From Escherichia phage AnYang, in the sequence record MK234886: 64,000 nt of DNA; one strand, 5' to 3'. Both the position numbers and the translations under genes were made by a program. The notes beneath the pieces are model-generated. The model saw only the letters and a program-made list of their open reading frames with translations, made no database searches and was not told the DNA's origin. Shown here one piece after another: positions 20,704 through 31,952 of the stretch. The first letter of the stretch is position 1. Each line of letters begins with the position of its first letter.

Positions 20704-20711
20704 TATAAATA
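20704..20711 (+). promoter_or_regulatory. T4 late promoter (gene 34)
   Basis: Exact TATAAATA about 33 nt upstream of the gene 34 ATG. Confidence 0.7.
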
Positions 20712-20743: not shown

Positions 20744-23700
20744 ATGGCTGATATTTTAAAACCTGCATTCCGTGCTACATCCGGACTCGATGCTGCGGGC
20801 GAGAAAGTTATCAATGTTGCCAAAGCCGATTACAATGTATTAGATGATGGCGTCAACGTTGAATTCTTTATAGATGAGAACACCATCCAGGCGTACGACG
20901 AGACGCGCGGATATAAGAAAGGGTTTGCAGTAATCCATGACCAACGTATCTGGGTTTCTCAACGTGATATCGATGCTCCTGCAGGAACTTTTACTCCGGG
21001 CTATTGGACCGCTACCCGTACCGACCCTAAATGGATTACCGTAGCATCTCCTACACGCCAGCTGGCTTCCGGTGAATATATTGCGGTGGATTCCGCTGCT
21101 AGCTTTACTACATTTACCCTGCCTCCGAACCCTACTGATGGCGATACCGTTGTAATTAAAGATATTGGTGGACGTGTTGGTTATAACGAAATCAAGGTCC
21201 AATCTAGTTCTGCTCCTGGCGGCGGTAACCAGAAAATTGTTCGTTTTGGTAATCAGTTTACTGAGACCTTAATTACGAAGCCTTTTTCTTATAACATGAT
21301 TATCTTTGCTAACCGTCTTTGGCATTTCTGGGAAGCCGGTAATGAAGAACGTGGTATTCGGGTAGAACCGAACATGGCCCAGTTCCAATCACAAGCAGGT
21401 GATAACGTTCTTCGTCGTTATACTTCAGGTGCAGTAATTAAGTTTACCCTTCCTAAGTATGCGAACCAAGGCGATATGATTAAAACCGTTGATATTGATG
21501 GTTTAGGAAGTAAATTCCACTTAATCGTTGAAACGTTTGATGCTTCGTCTGCATTAGGTAAACCTGGTCAGCATAGCATGGAATTCCGTACCTCCGGTGA
21601 TGGATTCTTTGTTTATAACTCTACCGAAAAATTATGGTATGTTTGGGACGGCGACCGTCAAACTCGTTTACGTGTAATTCGTGACGATGTTGAGCTCTTG
21701 GCTAATGAAAGTGTTATTGTTTTTGGCCCTAATAATACAACGCCGCAGACGATTAATATCACATTACCCACAAGCGTAGCGCAGGGCGATACAATTAAAA
21801 TAGCGTTGAACTATCTTCGTAAAGCCCAGACAGTAAATATTAAGGCTGCTGTAGGAGACAAAATAGCTTCTTCGGTTCAATTGCTCCAGTTCCCTAAACG
21901 CTCTGAATATCCGCCGGATACTGAATGGGTTCTGAATGATGTGCTGACCTTCAATGGTAACTTGAGTTATACTCCTGTTATTGAGCTTAGCTATATTGAA
22001 GATTCTACTACAGATGCCAAATATTGGGTTGTGGCTCAGAACGTTCCTACTGTAGAACGTGTGGATTCTAAGGATGATTTAACCCGTGCTCGTCTTGGTG
22101 TTATTGCTCTAGCGTCACAGACCCAAGCAAACGTAGACCATGAAAATAATCCTGAAAAAGAACTGGCTATCACTCCACAGACTTTAGCCAATCGTGTAGC
22201 GACTGAATCACGTCGTGGTATTGCTCGTATTGCTACAACTGCTCAGGTAAACCAGAATACTGGATTTGCATTCCAGGACGATTTGATTATTTCTCCTAAG
22301 AAATTAAACGAACGTACTGCTACCGAAACTCGTCGTGGTGTAGCTGAAATTGCTACGCAACAGGAAACTGATGCAGGTGTTGATGATACAACCATTATCA
22401 CTCCTAAGAAGCTACAGACGCGCCAGGGAACTGAAACCCTGTCCGGTATAGTAAAATACGTATCCACCACAGGAACCACTCCTGCGACTTCTAGAGCAAC
22501 TGTAGGTACTAACGTTTATAATAAGAACACAACTACTTTGGTTATTTCTCCTAAAGCTTTAGACCAATATAAAGCTAACTACGAGAACCAAGGCGCTGTA
22601 TATCTTGCAACTGCCCCGGAAGTTAATGCTGGTACTACTAATCCTGGATTCCAGAATGCTGTAGTTACTCCTGAAATGTTACACCAACGTGTGGCCCTTG
22701 ATAGTCGTACAGGTTTAATTGAAATTGCTACGCAAGCAGAAACTGATACTGGAACTGATTATACTCGTGCGGTAACGCCTAAGACGTTAAATGATAGAAA
22801 GGCTACAGAGACTTTAACGGGTATTGCTCGTATTGGTACTCAAGTAGAATTTGATGCAGGTGTATTAGATAATGTTATTTCAACTCCGTTGAAAGTTAAA
22901 ACAAGATTTAATGATACTGCTAGAACTTCTGTCTCAGCAGCCAGTGGTTTGATTGAATCAGGAACCTTATGGAACCATTATACACTAGATATCCGTGAAG
23001 CAAGTAATACTCAACGTGGTACGGCTCGTTTGGCTACCCAAACTGAAGTTAATACTGGTACTGATGACAAAACAATCATCACTCCACTTAAGCTTCAAGC
23101 TAAAAAGGCTACCGAAAACGCTGAAGGTATTATCCAACTCGCTACTCAGGCCGAAGTTATTGATGGTACGGTAAGTAATAAAGCGTTTAGTCCTAAGCAT
23201 TACAAATATATCGTCCAACAGGAAAAATCCTGGGAAGCTACTTCTGCTCGTAGAGGATATGTTAAATTAACCACAGGTACAGCCACTTGGGAAGGTGACG
23301 ATACTAATGGTTCTGTTGCTAACCTAGCTAAATTTGAAGATAACGGCTTTGCTATTTCCCCTCTTCAAATGAACACTGCTTTAACTCATTATCTTCCGAT
23401 TAAAGGTAAGGCTTTTGACAGTGATAAATTAGATGGATTTGATTCTACGCAGTTTATTCGTCGTGATATAGCACAAGATATTAATGCTAATATGACATTT
23501 AAACAGCCTGTAAGAATTGAAAACACTTTAGCGGTCACCGGTGCGGTTAATTTGAGTGGCTCTGTTATTTCAAATAATACTACATTAACCGGTTCTACTA
23601 CAGTCAATAGCAATTCTACTATGGGTGCTTTGAATTACATTGAGTTCACTTCAGAATCTCAAGGTGCGGGTACTTGGAACTCTCAACACAATAGTAATGT

Positions 23701-24622
23701 TAAAGCTCCTGTATTTTTAAATATAACTACAGGTCCAGGCTCTTCTAAATACGTTCCTATCGTAAAGCAACGGTATAAAACTGGGACATTTAGTTTTGGT
23801 ACTTTAATAAATGAGTCCGAAGCAAGTCCGGACGAAGGTTCATTTGTATTGCATTATATTGATGAAGCCCAGACACAAAGAAGATGGACCTTCCGTAGAG
23901 ACGGTTCCCTACTTTTATCAGCAGGTGACTTAACTCTATACAATGGTAATGCTACTATTAATGGCGGGTTAAGTGTAACTAAAGCATCCGGTATTACTAC
24001 TACGGGATTGGTTGCTTCCTCTTCATCAAGATTTGATGGCAGTGTTGCAATTAATAATACATTAACTGTTCGAGACCCTTTGACAGCTAATGGTGGTTTA
24101 ACGGTTAATTCAAGAATTCGTTCACAAGGTACTAAACCTGCCGACCTTTATTCCAGAAAACCTAATGCAGATAATACCGGTTTCTGGTCCGTTGACGTTA
24201 ATGATTCAGCTACATATAATCAGTTCCCAGGTTATTTTAAAATGGTTGAAAAAACTAACGAAGTAACAGGACTGCCGTATTTGGTTCGTGGTGAAGAAGT
24301 TAAATCGCCTGGTACGTTAACTCAGTTCGGTAACACTCTGAATTCGCTTTACCAAGATTGGATTACCTATCCAAATACTGCAGACGGAAGCACTACTCGT
24401 TGGACTCGTACTTGGCAGCAAAATAAAAATGCTTGGTCTGGATTTGTTCAGGTATTTGATGGCGGTAACCCACCACAACCGTCCGATATCGGTGCTTTGC
24501 CTTCTGACAACGCTTCAATGAGTAACTTGACCATTCGTGATTGGTTACGTATCGGTAACGTACGTATGGTTCCGGACCCGGTAACTCGTTCTGTTAAATT
24601 CGAATGGATTGATACACCATAA
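20744..24622 (+). CDS. 34: gp34 long tail fibre proximal subunit
   Basis: 1292 aa; N-terminus resembles T4 gp34; late promoter 20704..20711; internal repeat motifs. Confidence 0.9.
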   Translation: MADILKPAFRATSGLDAAGEKVINVAKADYNVLDDGVNVEFFIDENTIQAYDETRGYKKGFAVIHDQRIWVSQRDIDAPAGTFTPGYWTATRTDPKWITVASPTRQLASGEYIAVDSAASFTTFTLPPNPTDGDTVVIKDIGGRVGYNEIKVQSSSAPGGGNQKIVRFGNQFTETLITKPFSYNMIIFANRLWHFWEAGNEERGIRVEPNMAQFQSQAGDNVLRRYTSGAVIKFTLPKYANQGDMIKTVDIDGLGSKFHLIVETFDASSALGKPGQHSMEFRTSGDGFFVYNSTEKLWYVWDGDRQTRLRVIRDDVELLANESVIVFGPNNTTPQTINITLPTSVAQGDTIKIALNYLRKAQTVNIKAAVGDKIASSVQLLQFPKRSEYPPDTEWVLNDVLTFNGNLSYTPVIELSYIEDSTTDAKYWVVAQNVPTVERVDSKDDLTRARLGVIALASQTQANVDHENNPEKELAITPQTLANRVATESRRGIARIATTAQVNQNTGFAFQDDLIISPKKLNERTATETRRGVAEIATQQETDAGVDDTTIITPKKLQTRQGTETLSGIVKYVSTTGTTPATSRATVGTNVYNKNTTTLVISPKALDQYKANYENQGAVYLATAPEVNAGTTNPGFQNAVVTPEMLHQRVALDSRTGLIEIATQAETDTGTDYTRAVTPKTLNDRKATETLTGIARIGTQVEFDAGVLDNVISTPLKVKTRFNDTARTSVSAASGLIESGTLWNHYTLDIREASNTQRGTARLATQTEVNTGTDDKTIITPLKLQAKKATENAEGIIQLATQAEVIDGTVSNKAFSPKHYKYIVQQEKSWEATSARRGYVKLTTGTATWEGDDTNGSVANLAKFEDNGFAISPLQMNTALTHYLPIKGKAFDSDKLDGFDSTQFIRRDIAQDINANMTFKQPVRIENTLAVTGAVNLSGSVISNNTTLTGSTTVNSNSTMGALNYIEFTSESQGAGTWNSQHNSNVKAPVFLNITTGPGSSKYVPIVKQRYKTGTFSFGTLINESEASPDEGSFVLHYIDEAQTQRRWTFRRDGSLLLSAGDLTLYNGNATINGGLSVTKASGITTTGLVASSSSRFDGSVAINNTLTVRDPLTANGGLTVNSRIRSQGTKPADLYSRKPNADNTGFWSVDVNDSATYNQFPGYFKMVEKTNEVTGLPYLVRGEEVKSPGTLTQFGNTLNSLYQDWITYPNTADGSTTRWTRTWQQNKNAWSGFVQVFDGGNPPQPSDIGALPSDNASMSNLTIRDWLRIGNVRMVPDPVTRSVKFEWIDTP
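22190..23170 (+). repeat. tandem degenerate peptide repeats inside gp34
   Basis: Recurrent about 40-aa units: TESRRGIARIATTAQV, TETRRGVAEIATQQETD, LDSRTGLIEIATQAETD, TETLTGIARIGTQVEFD, NTQRGTARLATQTEVN, ENAEGIIQLATQAEV. Confidence 0.6.
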
Positions 24623-24630
24623 GAGGTAAT

Positions 24631-25755
24631 ATGGAAAGATTTATGGCTGAATTTGGACAAGATTATGTTCAAATTCCTGTACTATCTGAAAATAATGCCG
24701 TTAGTTATAAACTTAGTATAGCAGGGAGCTGTACTAAGTCCACTAAAAAGGCTTATATCAAATTTCAAGATGAGGACTTCGGTCCTCAGAATTTCCAATC
24801 TGGCCTAAATTTGGTTGAAATAGACCCGACAAATAACACAATAGTAACTACAAAATCATACGCATTTACCAAAGACCATGATGTTATTTCCCAAGCGTTT
24901 ATAACTTATATTTCGTCTATACCTGCCGGTAGAATTGTTTGCTTTATTTCTTCCGGTAAATTAAACGCCTCACAGATATTAATTGATTGGTTTAGAGCTT
25001 CCGGTTCTGCAGCGTTTCCAGATAAATGGCTTATTGATAAAGTGGATACTTCTTATTCAGCTTTTTATGTTTCAGGAAGAAATGCTATTGTAATGGAACA
25101 TGTGCTTTATAACGATGGCGTTTTGGTAGAAGACGTTTCCACCCCATTAGAAGTCGTTTATGACAACTTTAATGATGTAGGAGGAACTGGGTTCCCTGTT
25201 AGAGTCGTTGAAGATGAAAACACTTACTATAGTGGAGCTACTCAAGAAATTAAAAGGTTTCCTACCGAATCCACTATAACTCCTTGTGCCGGTTATAATA
25301 TGGTTCCTGGAGATTTCTTTTATCTTAAATTCCAAATGACCTATGACCAGGCTTTAAAAGATTTAGGGACGACCCAGATGTCCATACGTTTTTTTAATGG
25401 TCAGGAAATGCTTCAATCCACTGATATCAATATTCCTGTAGGAGCGGGCTCTCCACCTGCAGGCGCATGGATGTCTTTTGAGCGCGTAATAGAAGTTCCG
25501 CCGAATGCTAATGGTTTTACATTATATTGTAGAAAAACTGTCTCAGGCGGAGTAGGAGGTGTTAGGAATGTTATGTTTGGTGAAATAGCTAGACCTGAAG
25601 ATACACCTAAATCCGCTGAAATTGGTGTTAATGGTATTCGTATGAGCTATGGTACCGAAACCCGTTCAATGGGTAATGTTATTGCACAATTGAATGATAA
25701 ATCATCTGGTAATGCAGGTAAAGTATTTGTTCAAGAATTTAAAGAAAAATATTAA
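24631..25755 (+). CDS. 35: gp35 long tail fibre hinge protein
   Basis: 374 aa, coupled to gene 34; synteny and size. Confidence 0.8.
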   Translation: MERFMAEFGQDYVQIPVLSENNAVSYKLSIAGSCTKSTKKAYIKFQDEDFGPQNFQSGLNLVEIDPTNNTIVTTKSYAFTKDHDVISQAFITYISSIPAGRIVCFISSGKLNASQILIDWFRASGSAAFPDKWLIDKVDTSYSAFYVSGRNAIVMEHVLYNDGVLVEDVSTPLEVVYDNFNDVGGTGFPVRVVEDENTYYSGATQEIKRFPTESTITPCAGYNMVPGDFFYLKFQMTYDQALKDLGTTQMSIRFFNGQEMLQSTDINIPVGAGSPPAGAWMSFERVIEVPPNANGFTLYCRKTVSGGVGGVRNVMFGEIARPEDTPKSAEIGVNGIRMSYGTETRSMGNVIAQLNDKSSGNAGKVFVQEFKEKY

Positions 25756-25777
25756 GGGACCTTACGGTCCCTTTTTG
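25756..25777 (+). terminator. intrinsic terminator downstream of gene 35
   Basis: GGGACC-TTAC-GGTCCC hairpin followed by TTTTTG. Confidence 0.7.
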
Positions 25778-25778
25778 C

Positions 25779-25786
25779 TATAAATA
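25779..25786 (+). promoter_or_regulatory. T4 late promoter (genes 36-38)
   Basis: Exact TATAAATA about 26 nt upstream of the gene 36 ATG, just after the gene 35 terminator. Confidence 0.7.
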
Positions 25787-25811
25787 CGTTATCTAATAAA
25801 GAGGAATAACT

Positions 25812-26459
25812 ATGGCTGATTTAAAATTAGGCTCAACTGCTGGAGGTTCCGTTATATGGCACCAAGGTAACTTTCCGTTGACGCCGGTATCAAATGATAT
25901 TTTATATAAGACCTACAAAATCTATACCGAATTTAATAAGCCTCAAGCCGCAGATAACGACTTTGTTTCTAAAGCAGCAGGTGGTTCTTACAAAGGGACT
26001 GTTAACTTTGAAAAGGGATTAATGTTTAATGATTCCACTGGTTATGGAATCAAACTTGGTGCAAGAAATGGCGGACAACCTTTTACTGCTTCATTTAAGA
26101 TTAAAGGGCCTTTTGGCTTTGAAACTGAAACAGGAACCCCGTTTGTAATCTTTGACCCAACCACTACGGTAGGAGCTAACCGACTTACTGTAATGGGTGA
26201 TATCCTAGGTCGTCAAATTAAAGACGAATCTGGAAGAGTATTTTCTCCAGGGAATACTCCTACTAAGGCCCAGGTGGGTTTAAGCGATGTAGATAACGCA
26301 AAACAGGTCCAAATAAATAATAGTAACATACAATCCATGGCTGGTGTTCTTTCAGCCCCGAATTTCATATCTAGGAACCCAGGAACATTGAACGAACACG
26401 TTCCTCGTATTGACCAGGTTGTTCTTAGAGGTACATCTGAAGATTTTGGATATTATTAA
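25812..26459 (+). CDS. 36: gp36 long tail fibre distal connector
   Basis: 215 aa; late promoter 25779..25786; synteny and size. Confidence 0.8.
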   Translation: MADLKLGSTAGGSVIWHQGNFPLTPVSNDILYKTYKIYTEFNKPQAADNDFVSKAAGGSYKGTVNFEKGLMFNDSTGYGIKLGARNGGQPFTASFKIKGPFGFETETGTPFVIFDPTTTVGANRLTVMGDILGRQIKDESGRVFSPGNTPTKAQVGLSDVDNAKQVQINNSNIQSMAGVLSAPNFISRNPGTLNEHVPRIDQVVLRGTSEDFGYY

Positions 26460-26467
26460 GAGGCATT

Positions 26468-29400
26468 ATGGCTACTTTAAAATCGATACAATTTAAAAGA
26501 AGTAAAATAGCAGGAGCCAAGCCTACTGCAGCTCAGTTAGATGAAGGCGAACTGGCTATTAACTTGCGTGACCGCACTATTTTTACCAAGTCAGACCAGG
26601 GACAGATTATTGATTTAGGTTTTGCGAAGGGTGGAACTATTGATGGGGATGTTCTTCAAAACGGGACATTTAACCTTAACGGTAACCAATTTGTTTATGC
26701 CGGTAAATATATTGAATTTTTACCTAAGACTGCCGGTAACGGTGCCTGGGCTAACCAACATCTGAATAAAGCCCCTATCTTTACAGATTTGAGTTCAACT
26801 ACTTCAACTTCTGAATACCACCCTTTGATTAAGCAACGTTATAAAGACGGCACTTTTTCAGCAGGTACATTAGTAAGCGAAGGCAGTTTTAAATTCCATT
26901 ATATCAATGAAACGGGTGATTCAAAATATTGGACGTTTAATCGTAATGGTAGTTTTATTGTAGATAATGGCAATATTGAGGTCCGCGCAGGTAATATTAA
27001 CTCGGCCAATGGTGTTATCACTGGTCCTGAAATTGTTACTAAAAATATTAATTTCAGTACAAAACCCTTTGTAGCTAATGCCAACATCGGCTATGACTGG
27101 GTTTCTTTGCCCACCTGGGTTTATAACCCACCAGCTGATGGTTCTGATGATACTACTAACGGTTTAAACTATTTGCGTAAATTACGCGCATCAAGTGCAT
27201 CAAGTATTTTCCATGAAATTGCTGATTGTCGCAAAGGTAAGCCACAAGAAATTTCTTGGTGGACTGGTGTCGGTCCTTCGTCTTTCCAATGGGCTTTTGA
27301 TAACTCTGGACGTATTACTGCAGGTAAATCTATTTCTGTCGGTCTTCCTGATAATGGTGCAAATGGACGTTATCCACTTGAGTCTGCAATTTCTATTGGT
27401 ATTGCAATTGGTGATAACGATACTGGTATTAAATGGGTCCGTGACGGTGTTTATGACCTGATGGCTAATGGTATTTCATCTGCTACCATTTTGAATAACG
27501 GTATTAATAGCACTAAGAAATTGATGGTTGGTTATAGCCGTGATTCGGGTACTACATGGGATTTCCCAAATACCAACCAGGCTATGTTCACTGCACGTAC
27601 TGATGTTGATGGCAATAATAACGGTGATGGTCAGACTCATATCGGTTATAGCAGCAATGCCAAGATGTATCACTATTTCCGTGGCACGGGTCGTATGTCT
27701 GTTAGCATGGGTGATGGACTTCTTGTTGAGCCAGGTATTTTAGATATTAAAACCGGTACTAATACGTTATCTTTCCGCGCCGATGGTACCGTAGCTTCAA
27801 CACAAAGAACAAAATTTGATAATGGCCTAATGCTTAACTCTAATACCAGAAATGACGGTATTACATTTACTGCTGCTTCATCCATTGACGGCACTAAACA
27901 GATTTTATGGGAAGGCGGTACTCGAGCAGGTCAGAATAAGAGTTATGTAACTGTTAAAGCATGGGGTAATTCATTTAACGCCACTGGCGATAAATATCGT
28001 GAAACTGTATTTGAAGTTAGTGACGGGCAAGGATACCATTTTTATTCTCAACGGGGCGCGCCTACAAATGATGAAACTGTTGGCCCTGTATTAATGCAAA
28101 TTGCAGGTTCTTTAAATGCAAGAGGAACATTAAACACTGATAGCAATCTTTATGTGAAAGGATTAAGTACACATGAAGGTACCGTAACCATGAATAACGG
28201 CCTTCGCTTAACAGGCGGCGCTAATATAAGTGGCCAAGTTAAAATTGGCGGTGTTAATGATGCATTGAGAATTTGGAACGACCGATATGGTGCCGTTTTC
28301 CGTCGCTCAGAAACATCATTACATATTATCCCAACCAATGAAAATGAAGGGGAAAACGGTCCGATAAGCAACCTTCGTCCGTTTAGTATTGAATTAGGTA
28401 CCGGTGCCATTAATATAGGCCATTCTTTAATGATAGGCAACTCGGCACGCGCCGATGGCCTGTTGAATATTGATACCAAAGCATTCTTGATTACAATTAA
28501 CAGTCATTCGAAAATTAACCCTAACTATCGTATGGACCTGGAAAACGGTGCTTATATAAATGCTTTGATGGATTCAAATGGTCGTTCAGCTGGTGCAGGT
28601 TCATTTGCTTCCCAGAATAACGAAAACGTCCGCGCGCCATTTTATATGAATATCGACCGTGATGATACCAGCACTTATGTTCCTATGATAAAACAACGTT
28701 ATGTTCAGGGCAATGGTTGTTTTTCGATAGGTACTTTGCTTAATAACGGTAATTTCCGTGTTCATTACCATGCAGGCGGCGATGGTGGTTCTACCGGTGC
28801 TCAGATTGCTGATTACGGTTGGGAATTCACTAAATCCGGTGATTTTGTATCCCCTAAACGCGTTTCTGCTGGTGGTACAGTTTATCTTGGCACCGATGGT
28901 AATATTACGGGTGGTTCATTACCTAACTTTGCTAACTTGAACTTGACATTAGACCGTAAAGTCAATACCCGAATGGTTTCTTATTCAGGTACTGGCGGTT
29001 GGTATAAATTAGCCACTGTAACAATGCCACAATCCACTTCAACCGTCACATTCGAAATTGCTGGTGGAAATGGTTATAATATTAACACTCCACACCAATG
29101 CGTTACTTCGAAAATTGTTTTAAGAACTTCGAATAACAATCCGAAAGGTGTTAACGCGGTTGTTTGGTCGATGGATGTTGCTCAAGGTATTAAAAATGTC
29201 GCAACTGTTAATACATCAGGTGATGTTTATGACATTTATGTAAATGTAGGTACATATGCTCAGGCTCTAGCAGTTTCTTATTATGCTACTCCTAATGCAA
29301 CCATCAACCAGATATTTGCTTCAGATTCATCCGGCGCAACAGAAACTGCAGTTGAACTTCCAGCCGAGGCTATCCAAGGGGTGGTTGCTAGTGTTCTGAA

Positions 29401-30439
29401 TAACTTGGCTCCTACCCCGACCGGCGTGAAGCGTTATGAAGCTGATTCCGAAATAGCTATTAACAACCAAACCGGTATTCGTATCAGAAGTAACTACGAT
29501 AAAGCGGGTTCTAATGCTTTAATGATGCGAAATGATGGTGGAAGTTTTTATATTCTTATAACTGATAAAAACGCAACCGATGGCGCTGCAACAGTTAACG
29601 GTGATTGGAACTCATTGCGTCCTTTTACAATAAGCATGACTACCGGTGAAGTATCAATGAATAATGGTACAATTCATCGTGGTTCCTCTTTGTTCTACAA
29701 TGGCATAAACGTCAAAGATAACGGTTCGATTAACTTTGATAAATCAGGCGCAAACCCGAGAAACATGCGTATATTCCATGCTGGTGATGGCACACGCGGA
29801 AACCGTATTGAAATTGCTGATGACTCAAGCTATATTGTTTATTTCGAAAAAACTCCGGCCGGAGCAAACCGTTCTTCATATAATAGCTGCGAAGTTAACG
29901 GTATAACTACCCTTAGCGTCGGAACTAAGATTAACACCCCACAAATTGGAGCATTTGGTGTCAATACAACAAATGGATGGGGTGGTAACTCCATTGCAAT
30001 TGGTGATAGCGATACAGGTTTCAGACAAGTTGGTGATGGTCTTTTAGAAGCTTGGGCTAACAACGTTAAAGTTGTACGTTTTACTTCTAGTGAAGTATAC
30101 TCCGAGAAAAACGTCAATGCTCCTAACGTTTATATTCGTTCTGATATCAGATTGAAATCAAACTTCAAGCCTATTGAAAATGCTCTTGAAAAGGTTGAAC
30201 AGCTCGACGGTTTAATCTATGATAAAGCAGAGTATATTGGCGGTGAAGCGGTTCAAACTGAAGCAGGTGTTATTGCTCAGAAACTTAAAGAAGTATTACC
30301 TGAAGCAGTGCATGAATCTTTAGATTCGCAGGAAAATATGGTTCTGACAGTTTCGACTCAGGCACAAGTTGCTCTGTTAATTGAAGCAGTTAAAACCCTG
30401 TCGGCTAAAGTTAGAGAACTTGAAGCTAAATTAAATTAA
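26468..30439 (+). CDS. 37: gp37 long tail fibre distal subunit with C-terminal intramolecular-chaperone-like domain
   Basis: 1323 aa; last about 99 aa (SDIRLKSNFKPIENALEKV...) resemble peptidase S74 / endosialidase-chaperone domains. Confidence 0.85.
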   Translation: MATLKSIQFKRSKIAGAKPTAAQLDEGELAINLRDRTIFTKSDQGQIIDLGFAKGGTIDGDVLQNGTFNLNGNQFVYAGKYIEFLPKTAGNGAWANQHLNKAPIFTDLSSTTSTSEYHPLIKQRYKDGTFSAGTLVSEGSFKFHYINETGDSKYWTFNRNGSFIVDNGNIEVRAGNINSANGVITGPEIVTKNINFSTKPFVANANIGYDWVSLPTWVYNPPADGSDDTTNGLNYLRKLRASSASSIFHEIADCRKGKPQEISWWTGVGPSSFQWAFDNSGRITAGKSISVGLPDNGANGRYPLESAISIGIAIGDNDTGIKWVRDGVYDLMANGISSATILNNGINSTKKLMVGYSRDSGTTWDFPNTNQAMFTARTDVDGNNNGDGQTHIGYSSNAKMYHYFRGTGRMSVSMGDGLLVEPGILDIKTGTNTLSFRADGTVASTQRTKFDNGLMLNSNTRNDGITFTAASSIDGTKQILWEGGTRAGQNKSYVTVKAWGNSFNATGDKYRETVFEVSDGQGYHFYSQRGAPTNDETVGPVLMQIAGSLNARGTLNTDSNLYVKGLSTHEGTVTMNNGLRLTGGANISGQVKIGGVNDALRIWNDRYGAVFRRSETSLHIIPTNENEGENGPISNLRPFSIELGTGAINIGHSLMIGNSARADGLLNIDTKAFLITINSHSKINPNYRMDLENGAYINALMDSNGRSAGAGSFASQNNENVRAPFYMNIDRDDTSTYVPMIKQRYVQGNGCFSIGTLLNNGNFRVHYHAGGDGGSTGAQIADYGWEFTKSGDFVSPKRVSAGGTVYLGTDGNITGGSLPNFANLNLTLDRKVNTRMVSYSGTGGWYKLATVTMPQSTSTVTFEIAGGNGYNINTPHQCVTSKIVLRTSNNNPKGVNAVVWSMDVAQGIKNVATVNTSGDVYDIYVNVGTYAQALAVSYYATPNATINQIFASDSSGATETAVELPAEAIQGVVASVLNNLAPTPTGVKRYEADSEIAINNQTGIRIRSNYDKAGSNALMMRNDGGSFYILITDKNATDGAATVNGDWNSLRPFTISMTTGEVSMNNGTIHRGSSLFYNGINVKDNGSINFDKSGANPRNMRIFHAGDGTRGNRIEIADDSSYIVYFEKTPAGANRSSYNSCEVNGITTLSVGTKINTPQIGAFGVNTTNGWGGNSIAIGDSDTGFRQVGDGLLEAWANNVKVVRFTSSEVYSEKNVNAPNVYIRSDIRLKSNFKPIENALEKVEQLDGLIYDKAEYIGGEAVQTEAGVIAQKLKEVLPEAVHESLDSQENMVLTVSTQAQVALLIEAVKTLSAKVRELEAKLN

Positions 30440-30444
30440 GAAAA

Positions 30445-30470
30445 GGGCCTTCGGCCCTCTAAGGATTTTT
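30445..30470 (+). terminator. hairpin / weak terminator downstream of gene 37
   Basis: GGGCC-TTCG-GCCC hairpin; the T-run is displaced by about 8 nt. Confidence 0.35.
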
Positions 30471-30472
30471 TA

Positions 30473-31261
30473 ATGGCAATTGTAGGAATACCTGGTTGGA
30501 TTGGTGAATCTGCAGTGAATGAAACTGGACAACGCTGGATGGATGCTGCTATGCGTGATGTGCGAGTTGCAGTACCGGGTTGGATGGGTTCGATGGCTAA
30601 CCAATCAAAAGAAATTTACTTATCTATAGGGGCTAATAACTCTTATGACAGAAATACGCTAATTAATTGGATGAGAGCCCAAGGCGGTGCGCCTGTGGTT
30701 ATTACTATAACCGGGAATATAGTATCAAATAGCCGTGGAAACCCGTGTCTGGAATTCCCTAGCAACTTACCTAATGCTTATATACAACTTAATATTAATA
30801 GTGGTGTAACCGTTTATGGTCGAGGAGGTAATGGTTCTACTAATGGTACTGCAGGCCAAGCAGGCGGTACAGCAATCCATAACGCCGCTGGAACCAAATT
30901 GCGTATTCGAAACAATGGTGCTATCGCTGGCGGTGGCGGCGGTGGCGGTGCTGTATCGTTACAGAACAGCTATCCGACTAACGGTACCTGTGGCGGCGGT
31001 GGTGGTAGACCATTCGGCGTCGGTGGGAAAATAGGGTCTGATGCCATATTGTCCGGTGCAAACGCATCTCTAACTGCCGCTGGCTCAGGTGGTACCACGG
31101 TCCAATACGGTGCAGGTAACGGCGGTAATGTTGGTGCTGGCGGTGGACGAGGATGGGGCAAAAACGTTTATACCTCTGCAGGCGGTTCAGCTGGTGCAGC
31201 CGTTACAGGCAATGCTCCTTCTTGGCAGAACGTAGGAACCATCTACGGAAGCCGTGTGTAA
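30473..31261 (+). CDS. 38: gp38 receptor-recognising adhesin, T2-type with glycine-rich motifs
   Basis: 262 aa; MAIVGIPGWIGESAVNETGQRW N-terminus and GGGGGG tracts match remembered T2-type gp38. Confidence 0.85.
   Translation: MAIVGIPGWIGESAVNETGQRWMDAAMRDVRVAVPGWMGSMANQSKEIYLSIGANNSYDRNTLINWMRAQGGAPVVITITGNIVSNSRGNPCLEFPSNLPNAYIQLNINSGVTVYGRGGNGSTNGTAGQAGGTAIHNAAGTKLRIRNNGAIAGGGGGGGAVSLQNSYPTNGTCGGGGGRPFGVGGKIGSDAILSGANASLTAAGSGGTTVQYGAGNGGNVGAGGGRGWGKNVYTSAGGSAGAAVTGNAPSWQNVGTIYGSRV
30890..31150 (+). repeat. glycine-rich motif repeats in gp38 (GGC/GGT codon tracts)
   Basis: Runs GGGGGGG and GGGGG with short variable segments between them. Confidence 0.6.
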
Positions 31262-31272
31262 TACTTCTGTAT

Positions 31273-31280
31273 TATAAATA
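31273..31280 (+). promoter_or_regulatory. T4 late promoter (holin t)
   Basis: Exact TATAAATA 19 nt upstream of the t ATG. Confidence 0.7.
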
Positions 31281-31298
31281 TCTTTAAAGGAGAAAAGT

Positions 31299-31952
31299 AT
31301 GGAACCAAAAGTAGGATTTTCATTATCAGACCTACTTTTTGGACTTCTTGATAGAATTTTTAAAGATACTTCTTCCGGGAAAGTAGTTTTTTCCCGGGTC
31401 CTAGTCGTGGTATTATTGTTCTTTATGGCACTGGTTTGGTATAAAGGCGAGTATATTCTAAACTTTTACAAAGAGACAACTTATGCCTCTTATACTGAAA
31501 TGATTAGACAAGACCAGGACAATAGATTTAAAATTGCGGCTATCGAGCAGCTCCGAATAGTGCATTCTTCTTCAGGCGCAGACTTCACAGCAATATATTC
31601 TTTTAGACCAACCAACATGAATTATTTTGTGGATATGGTGGCTTACGAGGGTAAATTACCGGAAACGGTAGACGCAAAAAACACGGGAGGGTTTCCAATT
31701 GACAAAACGTCAATAGAATATATGGCGGGAGTTAACGGGAACTATTTTGAATCAAGTACTGAAACTGTATTTCTTCCTACAAAGAAGAAAACACAATTCA
31801 CGTATATGTTTTCGTGCCCGTTTTTTAATTTGGATAACGTCTACGCCGGCTCGATATCGTTGTACTGGTATGATATCAAACCGGATTTAGGATTTCCTAG
31901 ACTTTCGTCTATGTGCGGTCAAGCCGGAAGGACATTAGGTCGAACACGTTAG
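31299..31952 (+). CDS. t: holin T
   Basis: 217 aa; LSDLLFGLLDRIFKD, one transmembrane segment, matches remembered T4 gpt; late promoter 31273..31280. Confidence 0.9.
   Translation: MEPKVGFSLSDLLFGLLDRIFKDTSSGKVVFSRVLVVVLLFFMALVWYKGEYILNFYKETTYASYTEMIRQDQDNRFKIAAIEQLRIVHSSSGADFTAIYSFRPTNMNYFVDMVAYEGKLPETVDAKNTGGFPIDKTSIEYMAGVNGNYFESSTETVFLPTKKKTQFTYMFSCPFFNLDNVYAGSISLYWYDIKPDLGFPRLSSMCGQAGRTLGRTR

Follow-up and report, generated by a model that had tools for sequence, protein, structure and literature searches.

Gene organization at the distal end of the long-tail-fibre module

The window analysed herein is a 64,000-nucleotide stretch of Escherichia phage AnYang (sequence record MK234886), and all positions refer to it. 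The region under study is the distal end of the long-tail-fibre gene module of this T-even phage, which belongs to the genus Dhakavirus; the genome backbone is that of Dhakavirus, not Tequatrovirus. Gene 37 (26468–30439, + strand) encodes the precursor of the long tail fibre distal subunit, 1323 aa in length, and gene 38 (30473–31261, + strand) encodes a protein of 262 aa. Both products exactly matched RefSeq proteins of phage AnYang (YP_010100377.1 and YP_010100378.1), which are labelled as the fibre distal subunit and the adhesin, respectively. Gene 38 lies directly 3' of gene 37 and 5' of the holin gene t (31299–31952), an order shared with T2, dhaeg, and IME341. No tRNA genes were found within the window, and a literature search found no paper on phage AnYang. 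The arrangement of a chaperone-ended gp37 followed by a gp38 adhesin is nothing new; it is the textbook T2-type architecture and is already annotated in RefSeq.

Boxes resembling T4-type late promoters, with the sequence TATAAATA, were located by motif position upstream of gene 36 (25779–25786, + strand) and upstream of the holin gene t (31273–31280, + strand), where the box marks the 3' limit of the fibre module. In the whole window, seven such boxes were found against 7.1 expected, which is the chance level. Three of the seven precede genes 34, 36, and t by 18–32 nt, so that the positions of the boxes, not their number, are suggestive of a late-promoter role. From what is known of T4, late transcription of genes 36-37-38 might begin at the box at 25779.

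The gap separating gene 37 from gene 38 contains a G+C hairpin (GGGCC-UUC-GGCCC, 30445–30457, + strand), followed on its 3' side by the gene 38 Shine-Dalgarno sequence AAGGA (30461–30465). The hairpin is conserved in relatives, taking the C(UUCG)G tetraloop form in T2 and dhaeg and a variant form in IME341. Compared with shuffled sequences, its fold was not unusual (z of −1.3). It may act as an mRNA stabiliser or a weak terminator. A rho-independent terminator on the + strand at this site was unconvincing, as the T-run begins about 10 nt past the stem and overlaps the ribosome-binding site of gene 38.

gp37 ends in a Peptidase_S74 chaperone domain

T4 gp37 is 1026 aa long, and the sequence-only reading had correctly placed AnYang gp37 at about 300 aa more. 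In the open reading frame listing, the protein ends with NVYIR SDIRLKSNFKPIENALEKVEQLDGLIYDK...LIEAVKTLSAKVRELEAKLN. The C-terminal segment from S1225 to N1323 comprises 99 aa and begins with the Ser1225 codon at 30140–30142, exactly the start and length first proposed. A C-terminal intramolecular chaperone domain was assigned to this segment (aa 1225–1323; 30140–30436, + strand) from its Pfam match, its conservation, and its predicted fold. The Peptidase_S74 profile (PF13884) matched gp37 with an E value of 1.1e-15 and a score of 58 bits, against a cut-off of 22 bits, and the match covered the whole model (1–58 of 58), with S1225 at model position 1. The Pfam core thus corresponds to aa 1225–1282. 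The match falls within the last 99 aa of a protein that is homologous to the fibre distal subunits of T2, dhaeg, and S16.

A Ser-x4-Lys motif (SDIRLK) can be read off the gp37 sequence at the start of the domain, and the conserved cleavage serine that had been anticipated could be located: the catalytic residues are Ser1225 (30140–30142) and, five residues downstream, Lys1230 (30155–30157). PF13884 was present in all 60 database homologues of gp37 aa 1140–1323. Among the 61 sequences, Ser1225 was kept in at least 90% and Lys1230 in 100%; this set, which also served as input for structure prediction, consists only of short proteins or fragments of 105–320 aa and holds no full-length gp37.

The AlphaFold monomer model of the gp37 C-terminus had pLDDT values above 90 across the chaperone domain and showed a terminal helix at aa 1297–1322, in agreement with solved chaperone domains, in which a beta-rich core precedes a long helix at the C-terminus. 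A Foldseek search of the PDB with the domain model returned 7dc3 (E of 3e-6), 3gw6 (E of 1.5e-3), and 3gud (probability of 0.95), which are the MyRF ICA, the K1F endosialidase chaperone, and the GA-1 neck appendage chaperone, respectively. Upstream of the domain (aa 1140–1224), pLDDT was below 55, as expected of one chain of an intertwined trimer. The gp37 C-terminus also gave weak sequence matches with influenza HA2 entries in the PDB (E of 0.1–1), which were regarded as chance. Taken together, the profile search, the predicted fold, and the alignment with 6f45_A given below bear out the idea of an S74 chaperone domain at the gp37 C-terminus.

The predicted cleavage site and the mature gp37 tip

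The crystal structure of the S16 gp37-gp38 complex, PDB 6f45, was reportedly solved by Dunne et al. in 2018. The AnYang gp37 tip and chaperone domain aligned with S16 gp37 in 6f45_A with an E value of 5e-11 and with the cleavage motif in register, SDIRLK being aligned with S16 SDRRIK. The autoproteolytic cleavage site is therefore predicted at R1224/S1225 (30137–30142, + strand). By the same alignment, the last 54 residues of the predicted mature gp37 would be aa 1171–1224 (...GGNSIAIGDSDTGFRQVGDGLLE...NAPNVYIR; 29978–30139, + strand), a segment homologous to the gp38-carrying S16 tip in 6f45. The NAPNVYIR sequence is invariant in gp37 of AnYang, T2, dhaeg, and IME341. According to PMC7917993, S16 gp37 is cleaved at DLNVS^SDRRIKK, thereby exposing the docking surface for gp38, and cleavage in the fPS phages is predicted at DVYIR^SDGRLKI. 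The alignment hence predicts autoproteolytic release of the AnYang chaperone domain between R1224 and S1225, with R1224 as the C-terminus of mature gp37.

gp38 is a T2-type adhesin by homology

The sequence-only reading had described a 262-aa gp38 with poly-Gly motifs, and the protein encoded at 30473–31261 agrees with this description, with runs of GGGGGGG at residues 153–159 and GGGGG at residues 174–178; glycine makes up 32% of residues 115–262. Two adhesin families account for the protein from end to end. The N-terminal attachment domain (aa 1–42; 30473–30598, + strand) matched Gp38_N (PF21721) with an E value of 3.8e-16, and aa 47–262 matched GP38 (PF05268) with an E value of 8e-80 over the full model (1–218 of 218). 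Three tryptophans of the attachment domain, W9, W22, and W37, are invariant across gp38 of AnYang, T2, dhaeg, and IME341 and are aligned with Trp residues of S16 gp38; PMC7917993 describes Trp prongs of gp38 that dock into the gp37 tip. In the same comparison with T2, dhaeg, and IME341, the C-terminal end of gp38 (...WQNVGTIYGSRV) was also conserved.

The specificity region (30815–31210, + strand) contains five glycine-rich motifs (GRMs; aa 115–121, 153–159, 174–185, 213–225, and 237–246) and four hypervariable segments (HVSs; aa 122–152, 160–173, 186–212, and 226–236), with boundaries that are our own reading after the scheme of PMC3157838, there being no published numbering for AnYang gp38. 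The protein aligned with the S16 adhesin 6f45_D (E of 2e-45, aa 8–260) and with 9v85, the receptor-binding domain of PP01 gp38 (E of 1e-42), and its specificity region aligned with the polyglycine-II sandwich domains of both structures. Pfam scanning of AnYang gp38 gave adhesin families only, not the T4 gp38 chaperone family, and the nearest relatives are T2-type adhesins, with T2 gp38 itself 88.5% identical. Judged by this homology, gp38 is a T2-type adhesin, as first proposed, and not a T4-type assembly chaperone. By analogy with T2, S16, and PP01, it probably sits at the fibre tip of the virion and binds the receptor (PMC3157838, PMC12892980).

Proposed assembly of the fibre tip

Based on domain identity, motif, fold, homology, and gene order, we propose that gp37 would be synthesised as a 1323-aa precursor, in which S1225–N1323 (99 residues) would serve as a Peptidase_S74 intramolecular chaperone, aiding the trimerisation and folding of three chains. 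On the precedent of T2 and S16, the chaperone domain would then cleave itself off between R1224 and S1225 by means of the Ser1225/Lys1230 dyad and expose a flat tip formed by the three chains, each with NAPNVYIR at its end. One gp38 would dock on this tip through its Trp-bearing N-terminal domain, giving a 3:1 stoichiometry as in those phages, and the four hypervariable loops of its polyglycine-II sandwich would recognise an E. coli outer-membrane protein. As the loops would make the receptor contact, host range would be set mainly by gp38. We give this whole reading, an S74-cleaved gp37 with a gp38-capped tip and host range mainly through gp38, a probability of about 0.9.

T4 gp37 terminates in a receptor-binding needle tip. 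If AnYang followed the T4 pattern, gp38 would be a non-structural assembly chaperone of gp37, not part of the virion, and receptor binding would fall to the gp37 tip. The homologous genes in the ime09, SA21RB, and SA20RB records are indeed labelled "distal long tail fiber assembly catalyst", but these labels are carried-over T4 names. The full-length match to Gp38_N and GP38, the matches to crystal structures of virion-tip adhesins (6f45_D and 9v85), the closeness to T2 gp38, which is a receptor-binding protein (PMC3157838, PMC12529663), and the S74 chaperone domain at the end of AnYang gp37 together make a T4-like role exceedingly improbable. It is likewise very unlikely that the S74-like domain has degenerated into a remnant that no longer cleaves and stays on mature gp37, with gp38 attached elsewhere or around it. 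Catalysis is not provable from sequence alone, but both residues of the Ser1225/Lys1230 dyad are in place and conserved over 61 homologues, the Pfam model was matched over its full length, and the residues flanking the cut are invariant compared with T2. In 50-residue bins, the domain is 70–74% identical to that of T2, whose gp37 is reported to undergo C-terminal processing (Drexler et al. 1986, as cited in PMC3157838), and exposure of the S16 docking surface by cleavage argues in the same direction. We therefore retain a cleaved gp37 that carries gp38 on its tip.

Host range and receptor

For the T2-type gp38 family, it is the established view that the hypervariable segments determine host range (PMC3157838, PMC12892980). 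The pattern of substitutions between AnYang and T2 fits this view: GRM1–4 are identical, and the differences are concentrated in HVS1–4, which hold 13 of the 31, and in the N-terminal half. Host range thus most likely depends chiefly on gp38 rather than on gp37, in line with the earlier suggestion that the variable segments of gp38 probably control it. From the 88.5% identity to T2 gp38, FadL and/or OmpF could be put forward as the AnYang receptor, although this is a weak guess.

The architecture may well be as described while the receptor is neither FadL nor OmpF, the HVS substitutions having retargeted AnYang gp38 to LPS or a different outer-membrane protein. We regard this as a tentative alternative, less probable than not. 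The 13 substitutions in HVS1–4 compared with T2 speak for it, as does the fact that the gp38 proteins of T2 and SV76 use different receptors while being only two residues apart (PMC3157838, PMC12529663); moreover, the Dhakavirus LHE83 is reported to use OmpA (PMC10987938). However, D190 in HVS3, a site of T2 escape mutation (PMC12529663), is retained in AnYang gp38. LHE83 gp38 was absent among the 40 matches listed, the weakest of which was 53% identical, and among these the T2-like clade was nearest by a wide margin, at 88% or more, with CJ20 reaching no more than 77% and all others no more than 63%. Whichever protein is bound, placing specificity in gp38 means that anyone wishing to alter or understand the host range of AnYang and its relatives should look to the hypervariable loops of gp38.

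Comparison with known systems

AnYang shares with T2 the gene order 36-37-38-t, a gp38 of 262 aa, and a gp37 chaperone domain of 99 aa, with NAPNVYIR/SDIRLKSNFKPIENAL invariant. However, T2 has a Tequatrovirus backbone, whereas AnYang is a Dhakavirus. T2 gp37 (1341 aa as annotated CDS, against 1323 aa) is only 54% identical overall in the shaft, and it has a segment of about 50 aa just before the tip that is missing in AnYang.

Among the Dhakavirus phages IME341, dhaeg, VR20, and IME08, gp38 is 90–97% identical to that of AnYang, with IME341 at 97%. The closest relatives of gp37 differ from segment to segment. Residues 1–400 and 600–800 are 94–100% identical to dhaeg, except in one bin of 82%, and for residues 831–1100 the nearest relatives (88%) are the Tequatrovirus phages TB37, Solly, and PaulHMueller. 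From about nt 30100 onwards, the DNA of the chaperone domain, gp38, and t is 93–100% identical to IME341. No record in the phage collection covered at least 80% of AnYang genes 37–38. Judged from these segment-wise comparisons, AnYang gp37 is a recombinational mosaic in a distinct combination. One breakpoint lies at about 30100, near the cleavage site, indicating an IME341-like origin common to the chaperone domain, gp38, and the holin. This breakpoint suggests that the chaperone domain and gp38 might move as a single host-range cassette between Dhakavirus and Tequatrovirus. The broader proposal, in which the NAPNVYIR/SDIRLK junction would be both the recombination site of such a cassette and a universal docking interface, and the AnYang adhesin would have been retargeted by its 13 HVS changes, is doubtful. 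In practical terms, the invariant junction at the cleavage site would offer a natural place at which to exchange adhesin cassettes among T-even fibres.

S16 gp38 has three N-terminal Trp residues, as does AnYang gp38, but the sequences have diverged far more. In S16, the chaperone domain has 113 aa against 99 aa, the cut site differs (DLNVS^SDRRIKK according to PMC7917993, against NVYIR/SDIRLK in AnYang), and S16 uses OmpC as its receptor, with hypervariable loops unrelated to those of AnYang. More distant are K1F endosialidase (3gw6), GA-1 (3gud), and MyRF (7dc3), which share with the AnYang gp37 domain the PF13884 family, the Ser-x4-Lys dyad where the domain begins, the fold, and the C-terminal placement in a trimeric fibre, at 14–25% identity in the fold alignments. 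Their passengers are a tailspike, a neck appendage, and a transcription factor, respectively, whereas in AnYang the passenger would be a fibre tip that later receives a separate adhesin.

Layout of the long-tail-fibre module

The ORF listing placed a full T-even long-tail-fibre module on the + strand at 20744-31952 of Escherichia phage AnYang (species Dhakavirus anyang, Tevenvirinae), with gene 34 (20744-24622, 1292 aa), gene 35 (24631-25755, 374 aa), gene 36 (25812-26459, 215 aa), gene 37 (26468-30439, 1323 aa), gene 38 (30473-31261, 262 aa), and the holin gene t (31299-31952, 217 aa; Pfam Phage_holin_T). The Ser1225 codon of gp37 begins at position 30140 and opens a 99-aa segment (S1225-N1323), and the stop codon of gene 38 ends at 31261. 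The sequence-only reading had placed this segment and gp38 correctly to the base, and the 99-aa sequence was as quoted there. No tRNA genes were found in the 64 kb window.

Exact-sequence look-up identified gp37 as YP_010100377.1, annotated as 'long tail fiber protein distal subunit', and gp38 as YP_010100378.1, annotated as 'long tail fiber adhesin / tail fiber protein; host specificity'. Both exact proteins are thus in RefSeq under correct functional names, and the tip architecture is already known and ordinary. The flanking 20 kb was 91-95.5% identical to other Dhakavirus genomes, the best backbone match being phage 04086 (95.5%). None of the records in the phage collection searched spanned at least 80% of genes 37-38, because AnYang was absent from the phage-collection matches.

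Late-promoter-like TATAAATA boxes, which carry the T4 late-promoter consensus, were located on the + strand 18-32 nt 5' of gene 34 (20704-20711), gene 36 (25779-25786), and holin t (31273-31280). Over the window, 7 such boxes were found and 7.1 were expected, which is chance level, and therefore the placement alone is suggestive. The stretch from gene 36 to gene 38 had no TATAAATA, in keeping with a joint 36-37-38 transcript. The 33 nt spacer between genes 37 and 38 contained a G+C hairpin, GGGCC-UUC-GGCCC (30445-30457), directly followed by the Shine-Dalgarno AAGGA of gene 38. This hairpin is present as a C(UUCG)G tetraloop in T2 and dhaeg and in a shifted variant form in IME341; its probable role is mRNA stabilisation or attenuation, as known for elements in T4 intercistronic regions.

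In gp35 (gene 35, 24631-25755), aa 57-128 matched Pfam ILEI (PF15711, interleukin-like EMT inducer / FAM3-type domain) above threshold (E 2e-8, 35 bits vs a cut-off of 27), an unexpected match in a fibre hinge connector.

The C-terminus of gp37 is an intramolecular chaperone domain

The 99-aa segment had been proposed to be an autoproteolytic-type chaperone domain, and four independent lines (profile, solved relative, conservation, and fold) concur in assigning the end of gp37 to the Peptidase_S74 intramolecular chaperone domains. The profile search matched the whole Pfam PF13884 model (1-58/58) to aa 1225-1282 with an E value of 1.1e-15 (58 bits vs a cut-off of 22), and model position 1 fell exactly on S1225. 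The final 199 aa of gp37 matched 6f45 chain A, the gp37 tip of Salmonella phage S16 co-crystallised with its adhesin (E 5e-11), with SDIRLK of AnYang lining up with SDRRIK of S16, so that the predicted cleavage serine is S1225, aligned with the S16 cut-site serine. According to PMC7917993, the last 113 residues of S16 gp37 are autocleaved at DLNVS^SDRRIKK, exposing the gp38 docking face; the equivalent cut in fPS phages, DVYIR^SDGRLKI, is a prediction (PMC7917993). AnYang gp37 reads NVYIR|SDIRLK at this point, and the predicted cut is therefore R1224|S1225.

PF13884 was found in all 60 database homologues of gp37 aa 1140-1323, in whose alignment Lys1230 was invariant and Ser1225 was kept in at least 90%. 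Together, these two residues make up the Ser-x4-Lys dyad of Peptidase_S74. The AlphaFold model built from the homologue alignment had pLDDT values of 93-97 over the chaperone domain, with a long terminal helix (aa 1297-1322), and its best PDB fold matches were all S74-type domains: the auto-processing intramolecular chaperone domain of MyRF (7dc3, E 3e-6) and the chaperones of K1F endosialidase (3gw6, E 1.5e-3) and of the GA-1 neck appendage (3gud). Compared with T2, dhaeg, and IME341, the chaperone domain and both flanks of the cut were invariant or nearly so. Proteolytic processing of T2 gp37 in fibre morphogenesis was reported by Drexler, Riede and Henning in 1986, as listed in PMC3157838.

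gp38 is a T2-type adhesin

The proposal of a T2-type gp38 was likewise borne out. Pfam Gp38_N covered aa 1-42 (E 3.8e-16) and the full GP38 model covered aa 47-262 (E 8e-80), while aa 8-260 aligned with the S16 adhesin 6f45_D (E 2e-45) and aa 41-262 with 9v85 (E 1e-42), in which the receptor-binding domain of PP01 gp38 is fused to sfGFP (PMC12892980). The nearest gp38 proteins by tblastn were those of IME341 (97.3%), fDHCT2 (96.6%), VR20 (93.5%), IME08 (92%), dhaeg (90.5%), and T2 (88.5%), followed, among the matches listed, by a gap to CJ20 (77%) and the rest (63% or less). All computationally testable defining features of both families, Peptidase_S74 and T2-type gp38, are present.

When the sequence was divided following Trojet et al. 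(PMC3157838), gp38 showed five glycine-rich motifs with four hypervariable segments. Compared with T2, glycine-rich motifs 1-4 were identical and motif 5 had one change; hypervariable segments 1-4 had 4, 3, 5, and 1 changes, respectively (13 in total), and the other 17 differences lay in the N-terminal half, motif 5, and the C-terminal end. W9, W22, and W37 were invariant, and their S16 equivalents dock into the gp37 tip (PMC7917993). G+C content was 0.52 at 30750-31249 vs ~0.40 nearby, coinciding with the Gly-rich part of gene 38; the rise plausibly comes from GGN glycine codons, and a foreign origin seems unlikely.

Receptor specificity

The receptors of T2 gp38 are FadL and OmpF (PMC8594841, PMC12529663), and AnYang gp38 would use FadL and/or OmpF with a probability of roughly 60%. 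A different receptor is the lesser prospect, at about one chance in three; SV76 gp38, only two residues off T2, has a different receptor set (PMC3157838). The sequence-only reading had looked to the variable segments of gp38 for specificity; the comparison with T2 yielded the 13 hypervariable differences, from which the receptor is not confidently assignable. It is rather doubtful that specificity was retargeted inside the T2 adhesin clade and that the chaperone domain and gp38 were exchanged as a cassette.

Mosaic structure of gp37 and comparison with known fibre tips

Identity of gp37 to dhaeg was 94-100% over aa 1-400 and 600-800, save one 82% bin, vs only 26-74% over aa 400-600 and 800-1100, and aa 831-1100 shared 88% identity with TB37, Solly, and PaulHMueller, which are Tequatrovirus phages. 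DNA identity to IME341 rose from 55-59% before ~30100 to 88-100% after it (two gp38 bins, 82% and 85%) and stayed high as far as t, across the chaperone domain and gene 38. Therefore one breakpoint lies near the conserved cleavage-site region (predicted cut at 30140), with an IME341-like ancestry common to the chaperone domain and gp38. From these identities, gp37 (26468-30439) is a mosaic of at least three sources: dhaeg-like, TB37/Solly/PaulHMueller-like, and IME341-like.

Residues 962-1055 of gp37 matched the proximal fibre subunit's trimerisation domain, Pfam Gp34_trimer (PF21446, E 7e-11), which points to shaft modules common to gp34 and gp37. A repeat read by eye in the ORF translations, N(Q/S)HxNxxKAP(I/V)F...Y(H/V)P(L/M/I)(I/V)KQRY(K/V)xG(T/N)...(S/G)(F/N)F(K/R)(F/V)HY, occurred once near the C-terminus of gp34 and twice in gp37 (aa ~96-146 and ~715-768).

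The established T2/S16 account is the best supported for the AnYang tip, on identity, motif, fold, and synteny. By analogy with the homologues, the chaperone domain would make the distal end of gp37 trimerise and fold and would then cut itself off at R1224|S1225; the exposed tip would be capped by gp38 via its N-terminal domain, and a polyglycine-II sandwich would project the hypervariable loops to bind an outer-membrane protein. Recombination between conserved motifs is known at the T-even adhesin locus; the gp37 mosaic agrees with it, and the breakpoint pattern is not new in kind.
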